Below are positions 41,444-50,970 of a DNA stretch of 64,000 nucleotides, in pieces. The DNA comes from Promethearchaeota archaeon. Its GTDB lineage: Archaea; Asgardarchaeota; Lokiarchaeia; Sigyniarchaeales; SOKP01. Location: NCBI GenBank assembly GCA_048940925.1, contig JBHLOC010000012.1:38316-102315 (forward strand), given 5' to 3'. Each line of letters starts with the position of its first letter. The stretch's first letter is position 1. The notes under the pieces were generated by a model. The model saw nothing but the letters and a program-made list of their open reading frames with translations, was not told where the DNA came from and made no database searches. A program made the translations under genes and the position numbers.

Positions 41444-42724
41444 TTAGAGACTTTTTTTCTTCGGAAAAATCTTAAGTTCATATGAATATTGAATTCCAAG
41501 GATTTTTAATAGATCCTTTCCTTCTTGTAAGAGCTGAATGTTATTAATCTCTCCTTTATACCAGTTATATAGTATACAGTCTTCAAACTTACCTGTTTTT
41601 TTGTTATATTTCCAACTAGGCACGTATCCCCGCGGGTGTAGACCAAATTCAGTAAAAATCTTTTGATGAGTAGGCTTATAGGCAGAAATAAATGCTTCAC
41701 AATAGCGAATATTATATATTTTTCCACATTCTATAAACTTTTGAATAAATACATAGAGTTCCTCTAAACATTTTACATTGTATTGAGTTTTTTCAAAATT
41801 TTGGACCGTGGGTGTATAAAGAAATTTAAAAAAGGAATCAGAATCCTTAAAAGAAAATTTAATAGACTCATATCCAAATCTATCTCTTGAAATTTCTTGC
41901 ATTAGATTATTGTGTAATTCTTTTATTTTTTGAATGTTGAGGTGTAACTCCAGCTTATTTGTATTTATAATCTTACAGGAACCTAGATTATATCGTTTAT
42001 CGGAATAGAGAAATCCGTCAAGTGCTTCAGATAGGATTTGAGGGGATTTCTTGCTTCGCATAGTGGTTAAGGTTCTTTCATCATAACTTAGTATTAGTAA
42101 ATCAGACTCAACTTTATTGTAGAATATATCTTTACAAGGATAAAAAGCAACAGGTCTAAATCCTAACGCACTTAGGAAATACTGTGATTTTGAATGAGCA
42201 GTACGGCATTCCCCGTACCACCTAAAAATTCTATCATAATACTTTTTATACATTGTAATAATTGAGCCCATAGCCATTTTCATGATATCTAGCCTTCCTA
42301 AGAATTTCTTCTTAAGATTAAATCCCCTGACACTTCCCAGCTTTTTATCGAAGTCTAGGATAAAAGTGAAACATCCTACAATTACATGATCCTTGGTTTC
42401 GAATACCAACCATTCAACATTAGGACTATCGAGCATTTTCAGAATTTTTTGCCTATCTTCCATCTCTTTATAGGGATAAGAATTATTATAGACATCTTTA
42501 TAGATGAATATTATTTCATCTATATCTTCAGGCTTAGCATTTCGAATTATAGGATTGATTCTCTTTTTATCGCTCCTTCCTTTAATCTCAAAATCAAGCC
42601 ATGTTCCTTCTTGAAAATCACATTCTGCAAGTTCATCGAAGGATTGTAGAAATTGCTGCGTGAAATTCATAAACATGTCATCATAGGAGATGACTGAGGT
42701 GGTGATCAATTTTTTTGATATCAT
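41444..42724 (-). CDS. GNAT-domain protein (tandem GNAT-like)
   Basis: IRNAKPED, YNNSYPY, ECRTAHSKSQ, LGFRPVAFYP, second GLHPRGYVP. Confidence 0.7.
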   Translation of the reverse strand: MISKKLITTSVISYDDMFMNFTQQFLQSFDELAECDFQEGTWLDFEIKGRSDKKRINPIIRNAKPEDIDEIIFIYKDVYNNSYPYKEMEDRQKILKMLDSPNVEWLVFETKDHVIVGCFTFILDFDKKLGSVRGFNLKKKFLGRLDIMKMAMGSIITMYKKYYDRIFRWYGECRTAHSKSQYFLSALGFRPVAFYPCKDIFYNKVESDLLILSYDERTLTTMRSKKSPQILSEALDGFLYSDKRYNLGSCKIINTNKLELHLNIQKIKELHNNLMQEISRDRFGYESIKFSFKDSDSFFKFLYTPTVQNFEKTQYNVKCLEELYVFIQKFIECGKIYNIRYCEAFISAYKPTHQKIFTEFGLHPRGYVPSWKYNKKTGKFEDCILYNWYKGEINNIQLLQEGKDLLKILGIQYSYELKIFPKKKSL

Positions 42725-42904: not shown

Positions 42905-43261
42905 TTAATTTTGTAATTGGTCTTTTAATCTTTGACAGATATTAGAGATTCTTTTTCCAAGTTCCTCAAATAACGTATCTTTTTCTTCTAATAATCTATT
43001 TTTTTCCTGTAATTGCGTATGAATTTCATGATTAACCGGTTTTGGAGCAAATGAATTATGGTAAAATTGAAATATGCCTTGTAATTGTTCTAATAGATCT
43101 GCACGGAACTCCAATATCTGCCGTTTTACCTCGATAGGTTTACACTGTCCTTTACTGAGACGATCAATACTCTGTCTTAAGTTCTCTAATTCTTCTTCAT
43201 CAAAAATAACCTTTTCTAATGAATTATATAACATTTCATTTTGCGATTTTTGTTTTTCCAT
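42905..43261 (-). CDS. Coiled-coil hypothetical protein, last gene of the membrane operon
   Basis: GGAGG RBS; heptad-rich sequence; 12 nt after the preceding gene. Confidence 0.7.
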   Translation of the reverse strand: MEKQKSQNEMLYNSLEKVIFDEEELENLRQSIDRLSKGQCKPIEVKRQILEFRADLLEQLQGIFQFYHNSFAPKPVNHEIHTQLQEKNRLLEEKDTLFEELGKRISNICQRLKDQLQN

Positions 43262-43273
43262 ATGATTACCTCC

Positions 43274-46200
43274 TTAACTATAAATAAAGTCCTGAATCTC
43301 TTCAAAAAATTGTTTAATTCTATTATATAACTGTGTCGGATCATCCTTTCCAAAGGTAATAATTCTAAAGGAGTCTACATATGCTTGTAATAGTTCCTTA
43401 CGATAGGGAAACTCTTCAAAGCTACTAAGAAGATCGTAAAACATATTTAATTGATTATCTGTAACTAATCCTTCTTCATTATGAAAGTGGGTATACACAT
43501 TAGCTAAATATCTTCTCAAAAAATCATGCTCTATTTTCAATGCTTTCTTATGATTTCCCTTTCGAAGTGCATCCCAGATTAAGTATACCTCATGATAGGA
43601 ATCTGATAACTCACGTTGCAATGCTTTCTTTAGATTCTCTTTCTGGATAATAACTCTTCTGTGCTCGAATGGAGCAGGTGCATCCGCCTCTTTATCCATC
43701 ACTTCAACATTGATCTCTCCGTGAAGTCGTTGTTGAGCCTGATAATAATCTTGTAAAGCTATATTGTATTGTTCTCCGACACGATATGAAGTACGAATGG
43801 ATTGAGAACCACTTGCTTTTCGAGAATGATCTTCTACTAAATAGTGGTGTTTAATAAGAATATCGAGTAATATATCACGTAATTTAGTGATATGCTCTTT
43901 TTTCACTCTTCGCTGTATTGCTTTAGGTGCGATAAATTTTAATAGCTCTTTTTTTAATTTTTCCTTATATAAATTACCTATATTATCTAATTGACTTAAT
44001 GATGAAAGAAAGTCCATAATTTCTTTACGATACCCCATATAATTGCCTAAATCAATCTCAAAGATAGTTTGATGGGCGTGTTCCAAAAGTCTCCTTTCTG
44101 CATCCCTTAAATCATACCCCTGTGTTCTCATAAATGGAACGATTTCTTCATAAGGGAGTGGATGTTTTTTCACAATATCATCATATTCGAGTTGCACTGG
44201 AAACGCTTGATATATATCTTCTCTTTTGATTAAAGCTTTACAATTATTAAGATTCTTAAGATAATCAAGTTGATAGGTATTATTCCGTTTGGAACTGTAA
44301 TAGCCTGTTCCCACCAATTCTTGAAGATTCATCAAGTTTTTTAATAATGAAATGTCTCGATTATCAACTGCTTTAAACACCATGATATTAGGAAAATAGT
44401 TGAATACATTTTGATGTATGCTATGGACTTGATTTGCAGAATATACTACTCCGAATCCATGTTGACGTAAAGATCCTAAGAATTTGTCAATTTTACCATA
44501 ATGAGACTGTGTTGTTATATATCTGGAATCAAAGAATATATCAATACTAGGCATAAATATAATTTTTGGAATATACCCATCATTTGTCGTAATATAATGA
44601 ATGAGTTTGGAGACAATCAAAAATGCAAAGAATAACTGGGTGCTAAATTCATTCGTAATAGAAAGATCTACAATAACAGTTTTATCTGTCTTTATAAAAT
44701 CAGAGGATAGCACCTTGGATGCTGTAGCATTTAAGCATAATATAAGGTCTTCTTGCGTTAAATCAGAAAATACAGATCCTAATGCCATATTTGGTGGTCG
44801 TTTCTCCCAATCGCTTTGTGTTCTTATTTCTAAATTAAGTGAAGGAAGATCCATTTCAGGATTTTTTAATATTGTATTTCTAAACATTTCAATAGTTCGC
44901 TTGTCCTTTCGAAATGCTAATCCATAGACATCAAATAGAAATTCTTGGTATTTGCTATTGCTAAGATCATAAGGAATATCAGATCGTAAGGGATCTAAGC
45001 TGAATGAAGTTCCTAGTTTGAAATAGAGGAGTTCTTTCTCAAATTGGGTACCTTCAAAAAAGGAGATCAGTTTGGACCATCTCCCTGAAAAATCAAATAT
45101 AAGAGAAGGGATTTTGGCTTGGATTAATTCAGCAGCAATTTTCATAGAGGTATGTTCTCTCTCTTCAGATGTCCCATTTACGATGAGAAGCTGTCTTAAC
45201 TGATTTAACGTAAATCCGAAGGGAATTTCTGTTTCTAATATTTCTGTATTGAGTGTATGACCAAGAGTAATGAAATTTTTCAAGTGTAAAGGAGTGTTGA
45301 ATTCTGCCCCTATTCGTGTCTCTACACCTTTCTTATATTCATCAGAAATCTCAACCAACTTATTTAGAGTTTTTCCTTGCAGGATTAAGTATTGTAAGTG
45401 AGTACCACTTAACTTATAGTTATATGTCTTAAGGGTAGAGCATAAATATCCTGAGATTAGTTTACGTTTATGAAGAGGCATAAGCCGTAGTCCATTAAAA
45501 TTGGAGATAAACGCATGAGCAATTGCTTTACTCTTTTCATTAAGCTCATGTTCTAAATGAAGCATGTTTCGTACTCGCACTCGTCTGATATACTTACGAT
45601 TTGAGACTGATAACAGGAGCATAGATTCCCATAGCCCAGAACGCATAGTTGCCCATCGATGTTCTATGCTCGTAATTTCTCTTTTCTTTCTTCTCACCTT
45701 TTTTCTTAAATATTTATCCCATAGATAATAACGAGTAAAATCAAACCAATGTTGCGCTCTTGTATTAAGATGTTTAAAACAGGCTCTTTCAAACCGAGCT
45801 ATACTTATAGGTGTATTACATACCGTATATCCGAATGGAACTTTCTGAATCATTGCCGATTGAGTAAAGCTGTTCGCATGAGCAATGAGAGACGGACAAT
45901 ACTCATCTAAATTATACATTCTAAGATTTACCAGCATTTCATCGTTAATATGAAGAAAAATACTGGTAGGAATTCTGCTTGAAAAGTGGAATTTTATATC
46001 CGAAAATGGGTGTATAACAGTAAAATCTTTATTGTGGAGAAATAAAGTTTGAGAACCATGAAATAATAGCCCTCTCCACCATAGCCATATAATTCCAAAT
46101 ATTATTATAAAATTAATTGGAATAATGTAGAGAAAAAAACCAAGAATAATAAGAAATACATCTAAGTAGAAGATTACTATTGTGATAAAAATGATTTTAA

Positions 46201-47062
46201 ATCCTACTATCGAATTTTTTGGCTTAATAGTCTGTTCAGAAGCTTTAATAGGAATACTTTCTTTAAAGAAAAATGTACGTATACCATTTATTAACTCATC
46301 TCCTGAAAGTAATGTTATTTTGAAGTGATGGAAATTTGACGCAAATAAATTACGAAAGATTGCCTGATATTCGTATATTTTACTCTGTAAAAGATCAATT
46401 TTAAATTGTCGTAGAAACCCACGAATAGAAGAATGAATGCAAAAATAAATATAAGTCTTATAAGATCCCTGTGATCTTGTCTGAGTGCGTTGATTTTCAC
46501 TACTAGAAAGGTGAATCATCGGAATATGAATAACTTGATAAGTAAAGGGAATTAATTTACCGAGATCACTTAAGGTTTTAATATAGGTATTGGTAGTCTC
46601 ATGGACGTTTTCAGGGATAACCTCAATTTTAAACAATTGTATTGCAATATGAGTTAAATCTTCTTTATTCGTAACATAGAGGGTTGGGGTATCCCTTTTT
46701 TTCTGCCAAAATATGAAGTTAGAAAAGGGATTAAACATGAAGGATTTTCGAAAGGTAAATGAAATAAGATTTACGAAATTATAGCATTGGTCATAAAACG
46801 CTACAAGAAAAAACAGTAAGAATAGAACTCCTATGCTTACCGCAATATATAGTGGGATACCAACAAGATATGTAATAACTATAATAGACATTATTAGCAC
46901 TAAAAGGGAGATAGCTCTAATACTTGAAAAAGTGGTATTAATATGCTTAGGTTGAGGAGGTGTCCTCCAAATATTTAGGTAATCTTTATCTATCTCAAAT
47001 TCTACATTTCTCTTTAAGGTATATTTTTTCTTCTGGAATTTAGGCTCTTCTGACTCAATCAT
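43274..47062 (-). CDS. Membrane-bound VirB4/HerA(FtsK)-like protein with degenerate ATPase motifs
   Basis: Two TM hairpins each followed by an alpha/beta domain; ITLG...FGFTLNQLRQLLIVNGTSEEREHT, IPSLIFDFSGRW, LDPL, TVIVDLS, LRQHGFGVVYSANQ. Confidence 0.72.
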   Translation of the reverse strand: MIESEEPKFQKKKYTLKRNVEFEIDKDYLNIWRTPPQPKHINTTFSSIRAISLLVLIMSIIVITYLVGIPLYIAVSIGVLFLLFFLVAFYDQCYNFVNLISFTFRKSFMFNPFSNFIFWQKKRDTPTLYVTNKEDLTHIAIQLFKIEVIPENVHETTNTYIKTLSDLGKLIPFTYQVIHIPMIHLSSSENQRTQTRSQGSYKTYIYFCIHSSIRGFLRQFKIDLLQSKIYEYQAIFRNLFASNFHHFKITLLSGDELINGIRTFFFKESIPIKASEQTIKPKNSIVGFKIIFITIVIFYLDVFLIILGFFLYIIPINFIIIFGIIWLWWRGLLFHGSQTLFLHNKDFTVIHPFSDIKFHFSSRIPTSIFLHINDEMLVNLRMYNLDEYCPSLIAHANSFTQSAMIQKVPFGYTVCNTPISIARFERACFKHLNTRAQHWFDFTRYYLWDKYLRKKVRRKKREITSIEHRWATMRSGLWESMLLLSVSNRKYIRRVRVRNMLHLEHELNEKSKAIAHAFISNFNGLRLMPLHKRKLISGYLCSTLKTYNYKLSGTHLQYLILQGKTLNKLVEISDEYKKGVETRIGAEFNTPLHLKNFITLGHTLNTEILETEIPFGFTLNQLRQLLIVNGTSEEREHTSMKIAAELIQAKIPSLIFDFSGRWSKLISFFEGTQFEKELLYFKLGTSFSLDPLRSDIPYDLSNSKYQEFLFDVYGLAFRKDKRTIEMFRNTILKNPEMDLPSLNLEIRTQSDWEKRPPNMALGSVFSDLTQEDLILCLNATASKVLSSDFIKTDKTVIVDLSITNEFSTQLFFAFLIVSKLIHYITTNDGYIPKIIFMPSIDIFFDSRYITTQSHYGKIDKFLGSLRQHGFGVVYSANQVHSIHQNVFNYFPNIMVFKAVDNRDISLLKNLMNLQELVGTGYYSSKRNNTYQLDYLKNLNNCKALIKREDIYQAFPVQLEYDDIVKKHPLPYEEIVPFMRTQGYDLRDAERRLLEHAHQTIFEIDLGNYMGYRKEIMDFLSSLSQLDNIGNLYKEKLKKELLKFIAPKAIQRRVKKEHITKLRDILLDILIKHHYLVEDHSRKASGSQSIRTSYRVGEQYNIALQDYYQAQQRLHGEINVEVMDKEADAPAPFEHRRVIIQKENLKKALQRELSDSYHEVYLIWDALRKGNHKKALKIEHDFLRRYLANVYTHFHNEEGLVTDNQLNMFYDLLSSFEEFPYRKELLQAYVDSFRIITFGKDDPTQLYNRIKQFFEEIQDFIYS

Positions 47063-47900
47063 GGTTTATATCCTCTGTGGTTCTACTATTTTTCTTATAT
47101 AATATATAGAGTAGGATACAGGGCACAAAACAGATGGGACCCAATAATCCAAACACTCCTATGGTACTCGGTTGCATAATCATTTGTAATAACATTAATA
47201 GACTAAACATGAAGAATAACAACCCTACGCCAAAAACAAAATAAGAAAACATATGAGTCTGAGAACGCTGATAAGAGATATTATCCTTGAGAGTACCCTC
47301 AACGATGATTTTTCTACTTTTATGATTAGTAAGGGTATCTTTCATGGTCTTTAAATGAATTGCAGTTTTTAGGGTATTGGCATCCAGTCTTCTTGTATTT
47401 CCCTTTAACAATTGGGTCTCCTGTTGCTGGATTTTTTGTAATAATAACGGGTGAAGGAGATCATCATTTTTCCTTTTTTTCTGGGCCATCGAGGATAAAA
47501 ATGAAAACAAATTGCCAGGAGTCGTTATTGTAAGATCTTCTACTTGTAGGGTCTCATGCAAATTGGGTATATCTAATTTTAATAATTCAAAATAGTTAGC
47601 AAAGATTGTCTTGATATAATCGAGCGGTACATTACCCTGTGACTTTAAGAATACCTGCTCACATTCTTGTATGGAATAGAGAAGATCATCAGGAAAAATC
47701 TGGATCTTGAGATTCTTTAAGAATACCTCATTTATCATCCTCATATATTCAAAAAGTGTCTCGTGTTTATTCTTATTACAAGCTCTCATTCCTAATTTAA
47801 TCCCAAATTCATTGAGCTTATTATTGGTAAGAATTATCCCAACCCACGCTAATTTCTTATAATTATGGGTTCTCATACAAACTAAGATCAAATTCTTCAA
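47055..47900 (-). CDS. Hypothetical protein, soluble N-terminal domain plus two C-terminal TM helices
   Basis: TTG start; overlaps the next gene by 8 nt; hydrophobic hairpin near the C-terminus. Confidence 0.7.
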   Translation of the reverse strand: MKNLILVCMRTHNYKKLAWVGIILTNNKLNEFGIKLGMRACNKNKHETLFEYMRMINEVFLKNLKIQIFPDDLLYSIQECEQVFLKSQGNVPLDYIKTIFANYFELLKLDIPNLHETLQVEDLTITTPGNLFSFLSSMAQKKRKNDDLLHPLLLQKIQQQETQLLKGNTRRLDANTLKTAIHLKTMKDTLTNHKSRKIIVEGTLKDNISYQRSQTHMFSYFVFGVGLLFFMFSLLMLLQMIMQPSTIGVFGLLGPICFVPCILLYILYKKNSRTTEDINHD

Positions 47901-47911
47901 TTTCGTGGTAT

Positions 47912-48553
47912 TTATGATTTTAACTTCACCTCCTCTTCAGCCAACAATTTATCTAAATCTAAAGGCTCTTGAGCATTCAAGATGGTCTGCTCAACAGTCT
48001 TCTCCTTCTTGTCAAAACGTCGTATCGTTTGATAATGGAAGGAAGCATAGGGAGTGATTAAAACAAAAGCAATAATTTGGGCAATATATCCCGGACCAAT
48101 TGCACAAAAATGAAGAGAATGAGTCTGTAAATCCTCATAATAGGCAAAAGGAAAGTTGAGATCTCTAGGTATAAAAAACAATAAGGGAAATGCAAACAAA
48201 TTGATAAAAATTAAACTCCAGATACATATAGTAATCCAAGAGGAGAATATGATCCTATCGTGATTTTTATCAGTGTCAATATCTCTAAAGAGGACATCAT
48301 AGAAGGCCAAAATAATAATAATAATTGAAATAATTGCAATGAAAAAAGCTTCAGGAATTTCATACTGGTCTGTAAGGATATTGGGTTGTGTGGTGTGAAT
48401 AGACCATCCAAAAACCATGCTGAAATGCCCTGTCACGATTACTTCATGAAAAGCACCATAGATATAAAAGGAATACCAATCTAAGAATAATGATGCTAAG
48501 AATAAAATAAGACCTATGATAAAACACTTCTTAAATGTATCTTTTTGGGTCAT
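47912..48553 (-). CDS. Four-TM membrane protein (claudin-like topology possible)
   Basis: TM1-LDWY, extracellular loop, TM2/TM3, loop, GPGY-TM4, charged tail. Confidence 0.7.
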   Translation of the reverse strand: MTQKDTFKKCFIIGLILFLASLFLDWYSFYIYGAFHEVIVTGHFSMVFGWSIHTTQPNILTDQYEIPEAFFIAIISIIIIILAFYDVLFRDIDTDKNHDRIIFSSWITICIWSLIFINLFAFPLLFFIPRDLNFPFAYYEDLQTHSLHFCAIGPGYIAQIIAFVLITPYASFHYQTIRRFDKKEKTVEQTILNAQEPLDLDKLLAEEEVKLKS

Positions 48554-48556
48554 GAC

Positions 48557-50332
48557 TCACTCATTTAAAAACCTACTATATTTTCGAATAACTTTTTCTT
48601 TGTGGGTTGGTTGCCCTTCAAAAAACTTATCGTTTTGTACGATTTCTCTCAATTTAGATTTGGTATACAAATCTTCAGCATAAGTCTCTTCTATTTTGGA
48701 AATCACTTGAGTCTCAACAGTAGTATCAATACATTCATAGGAAAACTGAGCCATCAGTTCAGCAGAAAGCTGTTCATTAATTAGAATAAGGACTGAATCA
48801 TCTAGAATTTGGCGATAATACGGTAATGATGTCTTATCGAATATCATAGATTTATTTTGTAGATATCTAATATAAATAAAGGTTACTACACCTAAATATA
48901 TCCCAATTAAGCAGTATCCGAATATCGTTATGAAATTTAATAGAAAAAATGTTTGGAAAAGTATGAGAAGGAGAGCCACAAACCCAAAGCTTAGGATTGG
49001 TATAGAAGAATAGCGTATTTTCTCAATAAAATTATCTCGAATCTCATCATATTCAGCTGCTAGATCCTCACTTTCAGAAAACTCTTCTATAAGAGAATAT
49101 TTGCGTTCTAGAAAATCAAGAATTTCAGGGAGTTGAGCTAGTTCGATAACATGAATGTTTGTAGATTTATGATAGGCAAAAGGAATAACTTTATCTAAGA
49201 ACCCAACAGAACCAAGACACACAAGTAAAGGTTCAAGCAGTATTTTATATTGTAAGGGTCCATTTCGATATAATACCTTTTTAAAAAGAATTGATTTCTC
49301 CACCGATATCTCAAGTTTAAGAAAGTTAGTGAGCATCTGAGAGAATTGTCCTGAATTCATCAAATCATTTAGCATAACTTGGCATACTTTAGATAATTTG
49401 GTAAGGTAGGTGGTACAAACTTTCTTTATTGAAGGTTCCTCTTTCTTTACCTCACCCTCATAATCAATATGCGCCTGGGATATTTTTATTTTTCCTGTGA
49501 ATGAACTAAACTTAATAGGAAGTATAAGTAATAATTCCAGCATTTCATTTAATCTGAGCTGCTTTACCGCAATTGCATCAACAGTTGTAAATAGAGTTCC
49601 AGATTTAGGAAGAATATGATAATCTAAGGATTTTAATTCTGAATTTAATCGCGTAAGGAATTCTTGTCTTTCAATTTTTTCTGGGTGAATTACTACTGGT
49701 TTTTTTATTACTTCTTGGATTTTGGGAATGCTTTCTTCTTTAGGAATTTCATAAGTAATAGACTCTTCTTGAACAGGAGGAGTCATCACAGCTTTTATAG
49801 TGGAATTTACTCTATTGGGATGAGGATAGCTTTTTCCTAACTGTGAGATCTTAAATTTCTCTTCAAACCACGGTTTAAGTTCTTTTATATCCTCTACAGG
49901 TTCAACTTCATATTCTCTACCCTCCTTCTCAACAGTATCATAATAATATTCGGGTTCCTCATATTCAATCAAATCCTTTTCATCATGAGCTAGTTCAGAA
50001 TGCTCGGAGGCAGAATACTCATTTAAAGTTTTAAGACTACTAAACGACTTTGCAGCTCCAATAATTTTTTGAGCTGATTTCTCTCCAATCCCCTCAACTT
50101 CAGCTACTTGAGCTATGGTACTATTAGCTATCTTCTCAATCGAATCAAACCCATAGCGAAGAAGTCGCTCAGCAGTAGTTGACCCTACATATTTTAACTT
50201 AGTAATATCATTTTTTGCGGTAGCGCTTGCAATGAAAGCATTATCAATGGGTCTAGTCTCTTTATCCTCTTTTTCGGTTTCACCGTCAGTTAAATCTAAC
50301 GCATTATCAATTATTTTATCATGTTCTGTCAT
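48557..50332 (-). CDS. Membrane-anchored helix-hairpin-helix DNA-binding protein
   Basis: LKYVGSTTAERL and VEGIGEKSAQKI double HhH (RadA-N-like), acidic linker, central alpha/beta domain, two TM helices. Confidence 0.78.
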   Translation of the reverse strand: MTEHDKIIDNALDLTDGETEKEDKETRPIDNAFIASATAKNDITKLKYVGSTTAERLLRYGFDSIEKIANSTIAQVAEVEGIGEKSAQKIIGAAKSFSSLKTLNEYSASEHSELAHDEKDLIEYEEPEYYYDTVEKEGREYEVEPVEDIKELKPWFEEKFKISQLGKSYPHPNRVNSTIKAVMTPPVQEESITYEIPKEESIPKIQEVIKKPVVIHPEKIERQEFLTRLNSELKSLDYHILPKSGTLFTTVDAIAVKQLRLNEMLELLLILPIKFSSFTGKIKISQAHIDYEGEVKKEEPSIKKVCTTYLTKLSKVCQVMLNDLMNSGQFSQMLTNFLKLEISVEKSILFKKVLYRNGPLQYKILLEPLLVCLGSVGFLDKVIPFAYHKSTNIHVIELAQLPEILDFLERKYSLIEEFSESEDLAAEYDEIRDNFIEKIRYSSIPILSFGFVALLLILFQTFFLLNFITIFGYCLIGIYLGVVTFIYIRYLQNKSMIFDKTSLPYYRQILDDSVLILINEQLSAELMAQFSYECIDTTVETQVISKIEETYAEDLYTKSKLREIVQNDKFFEGQPTHKEKVIRKYSRFLNE

Positions 50333-50357: not shown

Positions 50358-50374
50358 TTTATAAAGGAAAAAAA
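50358..50374 (-). promoter_or_regulatory. Promoter of the membrane operon (TTTTTTTCCTTTATAAA), leaderless spacing
   Basis: TATA box ends 25 nt upstream of ATG 50332. Confidence 0.55.
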
Positions 50375-50455
50375 GGTAAACCGAAAATTTTTATTTATAA
50401 ATATCCACTACTATCATGAAATAGGACGGAAATATTAGTATTTCAAATAAGATAA

Positions 50456-50574
50456 GTTTCCTGCTAGCACCCTGGATTTTTGTCTTTTAGTAGTGTAAAT
50501 TTTTACACTCTGATTTCGCCCTCCTCCCCCTTGAACGTTTAATGGAGCGGTATTGCTCCGAGCTAGCAGGAAAC
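50456..50574. ncRNA. Candidate structured RNA or cruciform element (119 nt)
   Basis: Perfect 13-bp terminal inverted repeat GTTTCCTGCTAGC/GCTAGCAGGAAAC with internal hairpins at 50492-50509 and 50544-50559; GC-richer than its flanks. Confidence 0.5.
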
Positions 50575-50592
50575 GCCTTTTAACCAAGAAAT

Positions 50593-50970
50593 ATGATTTT
50601 TTTTCTTTATATTCGATTATTTTATCAACTATTAGACTATTCATATAAGAGAGGAAATATCATTATTGTCTCTGGAAAGATAAAGAATAAAGCTGAAGTA
50701 AAACGAAAGGCAAAAAAGCCTATATTATGTCCCTTATGCCAAGAGAAAATTGAAATTGGAGTAGAAAATTCTGTTGTTAAGGATATTTCTTTGTCAAATT
50801 TAGTCTATTTTCCTCACATTCATATACATGGTAATCCTCTTCATGCTTTAATCTGCTATCTTAACTCAAAATTAGAGACAAGAAATATTGGAATCATTAA
50901 AAGTATTGAAATTTCACGGGATTCGGATACTCTTAAACAAGTTATGAATAAATGGACAAATCCTTATTAG
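50593..50970 (+). CDS. Small Zn-binding protein (CPxC...HxHxHGxPxH), start uncertain
   Basis: CPLC and FPHIHIHGNPLHALICY; overlaps the helicase start. Confidence 0.7.
   Translation: MIFFLYIRLFYQLLDYSYKRGNIIIVSGKIKNKAEVKRKAKKPILCPLCQEKIEIGVENSVVKDISLSNLVYFPHIHIHGNPLHALICYLNSKLETRNIGIIKSIEISRDSDTLKQVMNKWTNPY

Follow-up and report, generated by a model that had tools for sequence, protein, structure and literature searches.

A membrane-tethered helix-hairpin-helix protein with a degenerate PD-(D/E)XK domain, paired with a degenerate HerA-like protein in an operon of Asgard archaea

The stretch analysed here, referred to as the window, comprises 64,000 nucleotides (nt) from a Promethearchaeota archaeon (assembly GCA_048940925.1, contig JBHLOC010000012.1, positions 38,316 to 102,315) and displays a G+C content of ~30%. 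Its minus strand carries an operon of five genes, designated A to E in this study. Gene A codes for a membrane-tethered protein composed of a helix-hairpin-helix (HhH) head and a degenerate PD-(D/E)XK domain, and is paired with a degenerate HerA-like protein encoded by gene D. The open reading frame (ORF) at 48557..50332, which a preliminary description of this DNA had pointed out, was recovered with exactly the same limits in the ORF list and by translation. Gene A and the parts of its product (residues numbered from the first methionine) are the following:

48557..50332, minus strand (-): gene A, 591 amino acids (aa), with HhH domain, linker, PD-(D/E)XK-like domain, transmembrane hairpin and C-terminal domain; it opens the operon.
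50033..50209, minus strand (-): (HhH)2 domain of the RadA-N type, residues 42-100, assigned to HHH_5 and RadA by sequence and fold.
49685..50032, minus strand (-): acidic disordered linker, residues 101-216, with a predicted local distance difference test score (pLDDT) < 50 and containing KPWFEEKF (153-160).
49073..49684, minus strand (-): PD-(D/E)XK-fold domain, residues 217-420, displaying D252 ... P272-I-K274 for D ... E-x-K, with a beta-rich insertion at 343-397.
48866..49000, minus strand (-): transmembrane (or re-entrant) helical hairpin, residues 445-489, recognized by hydropathy, model helices and K/R flanks.
48560..48865, minus strand (-): C-terminal, predicted cytoplasmic helical domain, residues 490-591, with Q529, E533 and the tail KYSSFLE(D/E).

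A profile of A devoid of the HhH part retrieved 226 homologous clusters (50% identity level, E <= 1e-3) from a library of 1.8 billion proteins, and gene A can therefore be considered real. Homologs occurred in Asgard metagenome-assembled genomes (MAGs) labelled Promethearchaeota, Promethearchaeia or Hermodarchaeota, and most genomes of one Asgard family carried A as a single copy. No description of the A/D family emerged from a literature search that combined Asgard archaea with either VirB4 or HerA.

The central domain was examined in two AlphaFold2-type contexts. The AlphaFold2 model of full-length A, built from 19 sequences, was good for residues 217-568, and the domain modelled alone (residues 215-422, 81 relatives) reached a pLDDT of 94.4 and a predicted template modelling score (pTM) of 0.90. 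When the full-length model was compared to the PDB, the HhH domain was the sole Foldseek match and the VIA-align list was swamped by the helical hairpin. For the isolated domain, Foldseek returned nothing at E <= 0.001; the VIA-align list was dominated by PD-(D/E)XK proteins, namely McrC (7.4), TIP26 (7.3), Can2 (7.1), VC1899 (7.1), FokI (7.0) and BsaWI (6.9), with four Hjc structures at 5.5-6.8. NucS, Bax1, Can1, SduA, VRR-NUC, NucC, Vsr and many type II restriction enzymes were also listed, Cfr10I and NgoMIV being among the fold matches. The modelled domain displayed the core alpha-beta-beta-beta-alpha-beta fold that characterizes the superfamily. A nuclease-like fold had been proposed earlier from the strings LKSLDYHIL (233-241), VDAIAVK (251-257) and LLILPIK (268-274), all present in the translation, and the isolated-domain model and its VIA-align list bear this assignment out. 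A nucleotidyltransferase identity, raised by weak Foldseek matches to cGAS, NF90 and PAP, was rejected, since these had a probability of ~0.3 or less, template modelling scores of ~0.13-0.25 and root-mean-square deviations (rmsd) of 11-16 A, the PD-(D/E)XK list being coherent instead.

At the level of key residues, conservation was partial. Residue D252, which directly precedes the long second strand (253-262), was an aspartate in 76 of the 81 relatives (94%). Position 272, where the glutamate of the ExK motif is expected, was occupied by proline in 78 of them (96%) and by an acidic residue in none, and position 274, the site of the ExK lysine, was K or R in 81%. Protein A thus departs from the (D/E)-x-K signature of the superfamily, its own motif being P272-I-K274. 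A profile alignment to 30 Asgard Hjc sequences (hhalign, probability 3.5%, not significant on its own) placed D252 on the PD aspartate, P272-I-K274 on E-V-K, and L-x3-G-Y at the end of the Hjc helix. This is the register in which the preliminary description had read a proline in place of the catalytic glutamate, a substitution shared by nearly all relatives. In the same low-probability alignment, the helix-1 glutamate of Hjc fell on the non-conserved L226; among the 81 relatives, E218, at the start of the helix, was acidic in 85%. A Pfam scan of A yielded no nuclease family profile and no match to Hjc (PF01870). As for Hjc itself, PF01870 was encountered in 0/18 and 0/15 genomes searched of the A-bearing family; many other Asgard families have it (e.g. 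9/9 and 7/7 genomes).

Because one canonical acidic residue is missing and a second one appears to be, a probably inactivated domain is a fair reading of these data, as had been suggested earlier. The part of that claim concerning the motif stood, as the ExK glutamate is gone and the first helix appears to offer no conserved counterpart of its glutamate; the part concerning activity is less secure, since D252, K257, E/D380, K381, N392 and H394 were kept at 85-94%. Most of these residues belong to the beta-rich insertion (55 residues, 343-397), which, with the signature YKILxEP...VGFxEKxIPFAYQKxTNIH, was the most conserved stretch of the whole domain and had escaped the preliminary description. 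They lend themselves to another interpretation, in which A would be an active nuclease with a non-canonical site formed by D252 together with E/D380 (91%), K381 (91%), N392 (90%) and H394 (85%), processing DNA at the membrane, for instance during import or export. Dead enzymes often lose all their catalytic residues, and Vsr, Cfr10I and NgoMIV, all fold matches of the domain, have relocated or unusual active sites; moreover, some relatives of A carry an NYN nuclease domain (see below). Yet the near-general proline at the ExK position, the apparently unmatched helix-1 glutamate and the lack of any nuclease family profile on A make such an activity unlikely, and the nuclease-fold domain is here regarded as probably inactivated.

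The N-terminal head was assigned in sequence searches. Pfam HHH_5 (PF14520) matched residues 42-95 (E 8.8e-13, 49 bits for a cut-off of 27), and, among solved structures, archaeal RadA gave the best sequence matches with its HhH domains at the N-terminus (3etl, E 6.5e-6, residues 43-99). Likewise, the head of the full-length model was superimposed by Foldseek on the RadA N-domain with an rmsd of 1.8 A over 59 residues and 41% identity. The glycines G50 and G81, one in the Gly-h-Gly of each hairpin, were invariant in the 19 sequences, and HHH_5 was detected in 42 of 64 relatives. The head is followed by a linker of 116 aa (101-216) that was modelled as disordered and contains 27 D/E, 15 K/R and 10 P, with a net charge of -12. 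Both the RadA-N-like double HhH and the long acidic, proline-containing linker of the initial reading are therefore retained. Within the linker, the motif KPWFEEKF (window 49853-49876) was conserved, F156 being nearly invariant; together with the C-terminal tail KYSSFLE(D/E) (window 48560-48583), it represents one of two conserved linear motifs lying outside folded domains, which look like docking peptides.

Another domain was found in 7 of the 64 relatives, namely an NYN/PIN-like RNase domain. In the five large NYN-bearing relatives that were examined (P0142, P0173, P0226, P0234 and P0236, all longer members of the family), this domain is of the Zc3h12a type and precedes the central domain. 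Two of them (P0142 and P0173) also matched HHH_5, and there the NYN domain comes after the HhH.

Downstream of the nuclease-fold domain, residues 445-489 form a hydrophobic block of 45 residues that contained a median of one charged residue in the 64 relatives, with a polar turn near 460-470, and the model displayed two long helices at 424-458 and 462-501. These agree with the two transmembrane helices predicted before. Since only a very short turn separates the two helices, the hairpin should have its two ends on the same side of the membrane. This side is expected to be the cytoplasm, because the flanks are positive (2.8 K/R per 15 residues before the hairpin and 3.0 after it in the same relatives) and because the N-terminal part of 440 residues is leaderless. 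Indeed, the N-terminus was acidic and displayed no hydrophobic signal-like segment, in line with the absence of a signal peptide noted at the outset. By the positive-inside rule, a cytoplasmic HhH is the likely topology, as initially proposed.

The C-terminal domain, which had not been recognized previously, was modelled as four helices (512-521, 524-534, 542-567 and 575-590). It holds Q529 and E533, the sole fully invariant residues across the 64 diverse relatives.

The operon context, also new, is composed of the following elements:

47912..48553, minus strand (-): gene B, 213 aa, four transmembrane helices; it begins 3 nt past the stop of A and follows A in 26/27 loci.
47055..47900, minus strand (-): gene C, 281 aa, a soluble N-terminal part and a C-terminal transmembrane hairpin; its place in the order is conserved.
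43274..47062, minus strand (-): gene D, 1262 aa, two transmembrane hairpins (~48-94 and 286-335) and a HerA/DUF87-superfamily core at ~555-1010; it overlaps C by 8 nt.
42905..43261, minus strand (-): gene E, 118 aa, coiled-coil-like and helical by eye; it begins 12 nt past D and follows D in most loci.
50358..50365, minus strand (-): TATA-like TTTATAAA, 26-33 nt upstream of the ATG of A, read by eye.

The gaps between consecutive genes are 3, 11, -8 and 12 nt, and the TATA-like TTTATAAA is a candidate archaeal promoter for a leaderless operon mRNA. The order A-B-C-D-E(-F) was kept in 8/8 loci of the same genus, and the 27 loci taken from public MAGs displayed A-B-C-D-E as far as their contigs extend, B being found in 26 and D in 23. 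A Hel308-like helicase gene lies divergently upstream of A in 20 of these 27 loci, with a Hef-like helicase beyond it. Within the genus, identity was ~31% for A and ~40% for D, against 76% for the neighbouring helicase; the operon is thus a fast-evolving one at a fixed chromosomal position.

Several further observations concern this locus. Gene F (41444-42724, minus strand, 426 aa, no Pfam match) is located 180 nt past E in nearly all loci, is conserved at ~50-75%, far above A-E, and is ~200 residues longer in several genomes, and probably forms a unit of its own. Between A and the divergent gene, a minus-strand ORF of 69 aa (50435-50644) was matched by tblastn in the genomes of relatives (59% over 51 aa, 43% over 65 aa and 87% over 23 aa); what is conserved here between the divergent promoters may be a small ORF or, alternatively, a non-coding element. 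Finally, one MAG contained two copies of A. One (L050, JABXKB010000011.1) is adjacent to a Hel308 paralog and has no B, C or D downstream; the other (L055, JABXKB010000014.1) is next to a Hef-like helicase and is followed by the full B-C-D set, which suggests a locus rearrangement or duplication.

For protein D, no match was found in Pfam, NCBIfam or PDB sequences (phmmer and profile searches), PF01935 gave no hit on D in the genome, and its 194 Asgard homologs likewise displayed no Pfam domain. A language-model Atlas offered leads to DUF87, HerA and TrwB at 0.90-0.91. In other Asgard families, the D profile reached homologs that are short (480-533 aa) and soluble (BLASTP E 2e-21 over 425 residues); their Atlas neighbours were DUF87 clusters (0.96-0.97) and a CedB cluster (0.92). 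An initial hhalign comparison of D, made before these short homologs were joined, gave 28%; the D core combined with them aligned to nine DUF87 paralogs of its own genome at 95.9% (E 5e-9, 377 columns). In place of the Walker A motif GxxGxGK[ST], D displayed N-G-x4-R-E, with R635 for the lysine and E636 for the serine or threonine, in the long and short forms alike. The Walker B motif hhhDD was lost in D and retained in the short homologs. Judging from these residues, D is a HerA-superfamily protein predicted to be unable to bind nucleotide in the canonical way.

The short homologs were located in three other Asgard families, where they adjoin Hel308 (locus L063, 3905-6318), RadA (L064, 5596-8045, and L066, 7531-9947) or a Hef-like helicase (L065, 1278-3775). 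The association with recombination genes therefore reaches beyond the A-bearing family. In L066, a 282-aa protein matching D residues 293-532 precedes a 520-aa protein that spans the HerA-like core. As a protein upstream of a short homolog matches this portion, D is considered a fusion, and appears, on the basis of these sequence matches, to be split into two genes in other Asgard families. The 280-294-aa proteins encoded upstream of the short homologs had been considered as possible homologs of C, which was rejected by comparison, one of them being the protein that matches D residues 293-532. The core protein in L063 had weak winged-helix matches near its C-terminus.

In one interpretation of the locus, A-E would be a domesticated nuclease and HerA/VirB4 module that has lost both activities. 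It might then serve, in one lineage of Asgard archaea, as a passive DNA gate, or as an anchor between chromosome and membrane, feeding DNA to the Hel308/Hef/RadA machinery or receiving DNA from it. In this specific form, we hold the proposal to be unlikely.

A full-length paralog of D (~40% identity) was found in a separate operon (L068, G012:C59, 8092-13955; L069, G204:C22, 8087-14376). This operon codes for a protein consisting of a Cdc48 N-domain only (171-186 aa), a TPR protein (368-500 aa), the D paralog and a 231-aa protein, and carries no homologs of A, B, C or E. In the genome of the window itself, a fragment of the D paralog was present at a contig end (L067, G000:C37, 9248-10153). 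The company of Cdc48-N-domain and TPR proteins suggests a reading in which D and its partners would be a general membrane scaffold or protein-handling machine unrelated to DNA, the modules of A then serving for protein contacts, e.g. with RadA or Hel308. The conserved GhG hairpins of the HhH, the occurrence of HhH and NYN nuclease domains among the relatives of A, in 42 and 7 of 64, respectively, and the recurring DNA helicase or recombinase neighbours all speak against this possibility, which we consider improbable.

The distribution of the operon is narrow. Among 251 Asgard genomes, the A profile was recorded in 40 of the 54 genomes from one GTDB family and in 1 of the 197 others, and full-length D followed the same pattern (44/54). 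Within this family, 38 genomes had both A and D, 8 had neither, 6 had D only and 2 had A only, these co-occurrence counts coming from kin genomes of a single family; some of the D-only genomes were cases of the D paralog. The 8 genomes devoid of both were 86-99% complete. From this joint presence and joint absence, it follows that the operon is passed on and lost as a whole, and that the organisms can do without it.

Another reading takes the operon for a membrane-bound nuclease-NTPase (nucleoside triphosphatase) system directed against viruses or plasmids, with A as a sensor of DNA that enters at the membrane and D as a switch or scaffold. The best VIA-align fold matches of the A domain include the defence nucleases Cdn1, Upx, McrC, Can2, SduA and NucC, and Upx has been described as a dual PD-(D/E)XK defence protein (PMC13099982). 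A nuclease fold paired with a HerA-like protein likewise recalls the nuclease-NTPase defence operons outlined in bioRxiv 10.1101/2025.07.10.664194, the operon proteins diverge fast, and the operon is wholly absent from the 8 fairly complete genomes mentioned above. On the other hand, the locus was fixed between housekeeping repair genes in the 27 loci rather than placed in a variable island, and both candidate enzymes are devoid of canonical catalytic residues. In addition, the PADLOC and PHROGs libraries gave no meaningful match. A role in defence is thus judged improbable.

The reading that we retain, and to which we give an even chance of being correct, sees in A an adaptor that binds DNA without catalysis and belongs to a membrane complex, A-B-C-D-E, which faces the cytoplasm and is confined to one Asgard family. 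According to this scheme, the HhH head would capture duplex DNA in the cytoplasm at the end of its flexible tether, without sequence preference. The nuclease-fold domain, no longer cutting, would grip DNA (ends or branches) and/or dock on a ring of D, while the transmembrane hairpin would anchor the protein and the C-terminal domain with its conserved tail would contact the partners. The complex as a whole may hold the DNA of the chromosome, or pass it on, along the inner side of the membrane. It could be tied either to the flanking recombination and repair genes (the Hel308 paralog and the Hef-like helicase) or to a Ced-like exchange of DNA between cells. The DNA receptor or chromosome-membrane tether envisaged in the preliminary description is plausible in the light of the operon and its helicase context. 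The adaptor reading also gains from the NYN domain of some relatives, which points to work on nucleic acid, and from the empty defence and phage library searches.

Three observations weigh against it. First, K257, E/D380, K381, N392, H394 and K411, all outside the canonical motif, were conserved at 85-96% in the 81 relatives and could represent an active site that has moved within the fold, as opposed to a binding surface. Second, the D paralog sits in its operon with Cdc48-N-domain and TPR proteins and no DNA-binding partner, and the D scaffold may therefore not be specific for DNA. Third, the fast divergence of A (~31% within the genus as compared to 76% for the helicase) is typical of conflict systems too.

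Comparison with known systems helps to situate the proposed adaptor. With respect to Hjc and the other small PD-(D/E)XK nucleases (1gef, 1ob8, 2wcw and 1hh1), A differs by the proline in place of glutamate and the apparently non-conserved helix-1 glutamate, and further from Hjc by the 55-residue beta-rich insertion and by its fusion to an HhH domain, a transmembrane hairpin and a C-terminal domain. In Cdn1 (8z4i) and Upx (9wuf), the matched domain is the nuclease domain of a soluble defence effector, whereas A displays an incomplete motif, a membrane anchor and a fixed chromosomal locus. A precedent for the non-enzymatic use of the PD-(D/E)XK fold exists in archaea with TIP26. This TBP-interacting protein (Tk-TIP26, 2czr) has an Hjc-like N-terminal domain; it is soluble, devoid of HhH and acts on a transcription factor, and no sequence relationship to A was detected.

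As to the HhH, A resembles ComEA, the DNA receptor of bacterial competence, in which an HhH tethered to the membrane via a linker is thought to hold DNA non-specifically, and A would be its cytoplasmic counterpart. ComEA has an N-terminal anchor and an HhH of the HHH_3 type located outside the cell. In A, by contrast, the HhH is N-terminal and of the RadA/HHH_5 type, the anchor is C-terminal to it, and the head is most likely cytoplasmic. The ComEA profile (TIGR01259) scored 13 bits on A (E 0.077) for a cut-off of 152, which places A outside that family.

In NurA-HerA (end resection) and DUF4297-HerA (defence), too, a nuclease-fold protein is encoded together with a member of the HerA superfamily, and the nucleases dock on HerA rings. 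A and D differ from these pairs in being both membrane-anchored and both devoid of canonical catalytic residues; NurA also has a different fold. Finally, the operon is reminiscent of the archaeal Ced system. CedB is an active ATPase, and Ced is not known to include an HhH or nuclease-fold subunit. D differs from CedB by the missing Walker A lysine. The shared traits are an archaeal operon, small membrane proteins encoded with a membrane-associated VirB4/HerA-like protein and a link to DNA repair (PMC11868833). The Ced DNA import system of Sulfolobales is given there as CedA, CedA1, CedA2 and CedB with the newly added CedD and CedE, a listing that names no HhH or nuclease-fold subunit (PMC11868833).

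So far, no DNA-transfer system has been described for Asgard archaea. D alone carries no feature that ties it to DNA; the link is supplied by A, whose gene belongs to the same operon, through its RadA-type HhH and nuclease-fold domain. Binding of DNA by the complex, if it occurs, would open a concrete and testable way into the study of membrane-coupled DNA handling in Asgard archaea. The complex would also clearly illustrate how two enzyme folds, a nuclease and an NTPase, can be retained jointly after the loss of their canonical catalytic residues. Should the interpretation as a domesticated module be true, the closest prokaryotic relatives of eukaryotes would have in this operon their first candidate machinery for exchanging DNA or for recombination coupled to the membrane.

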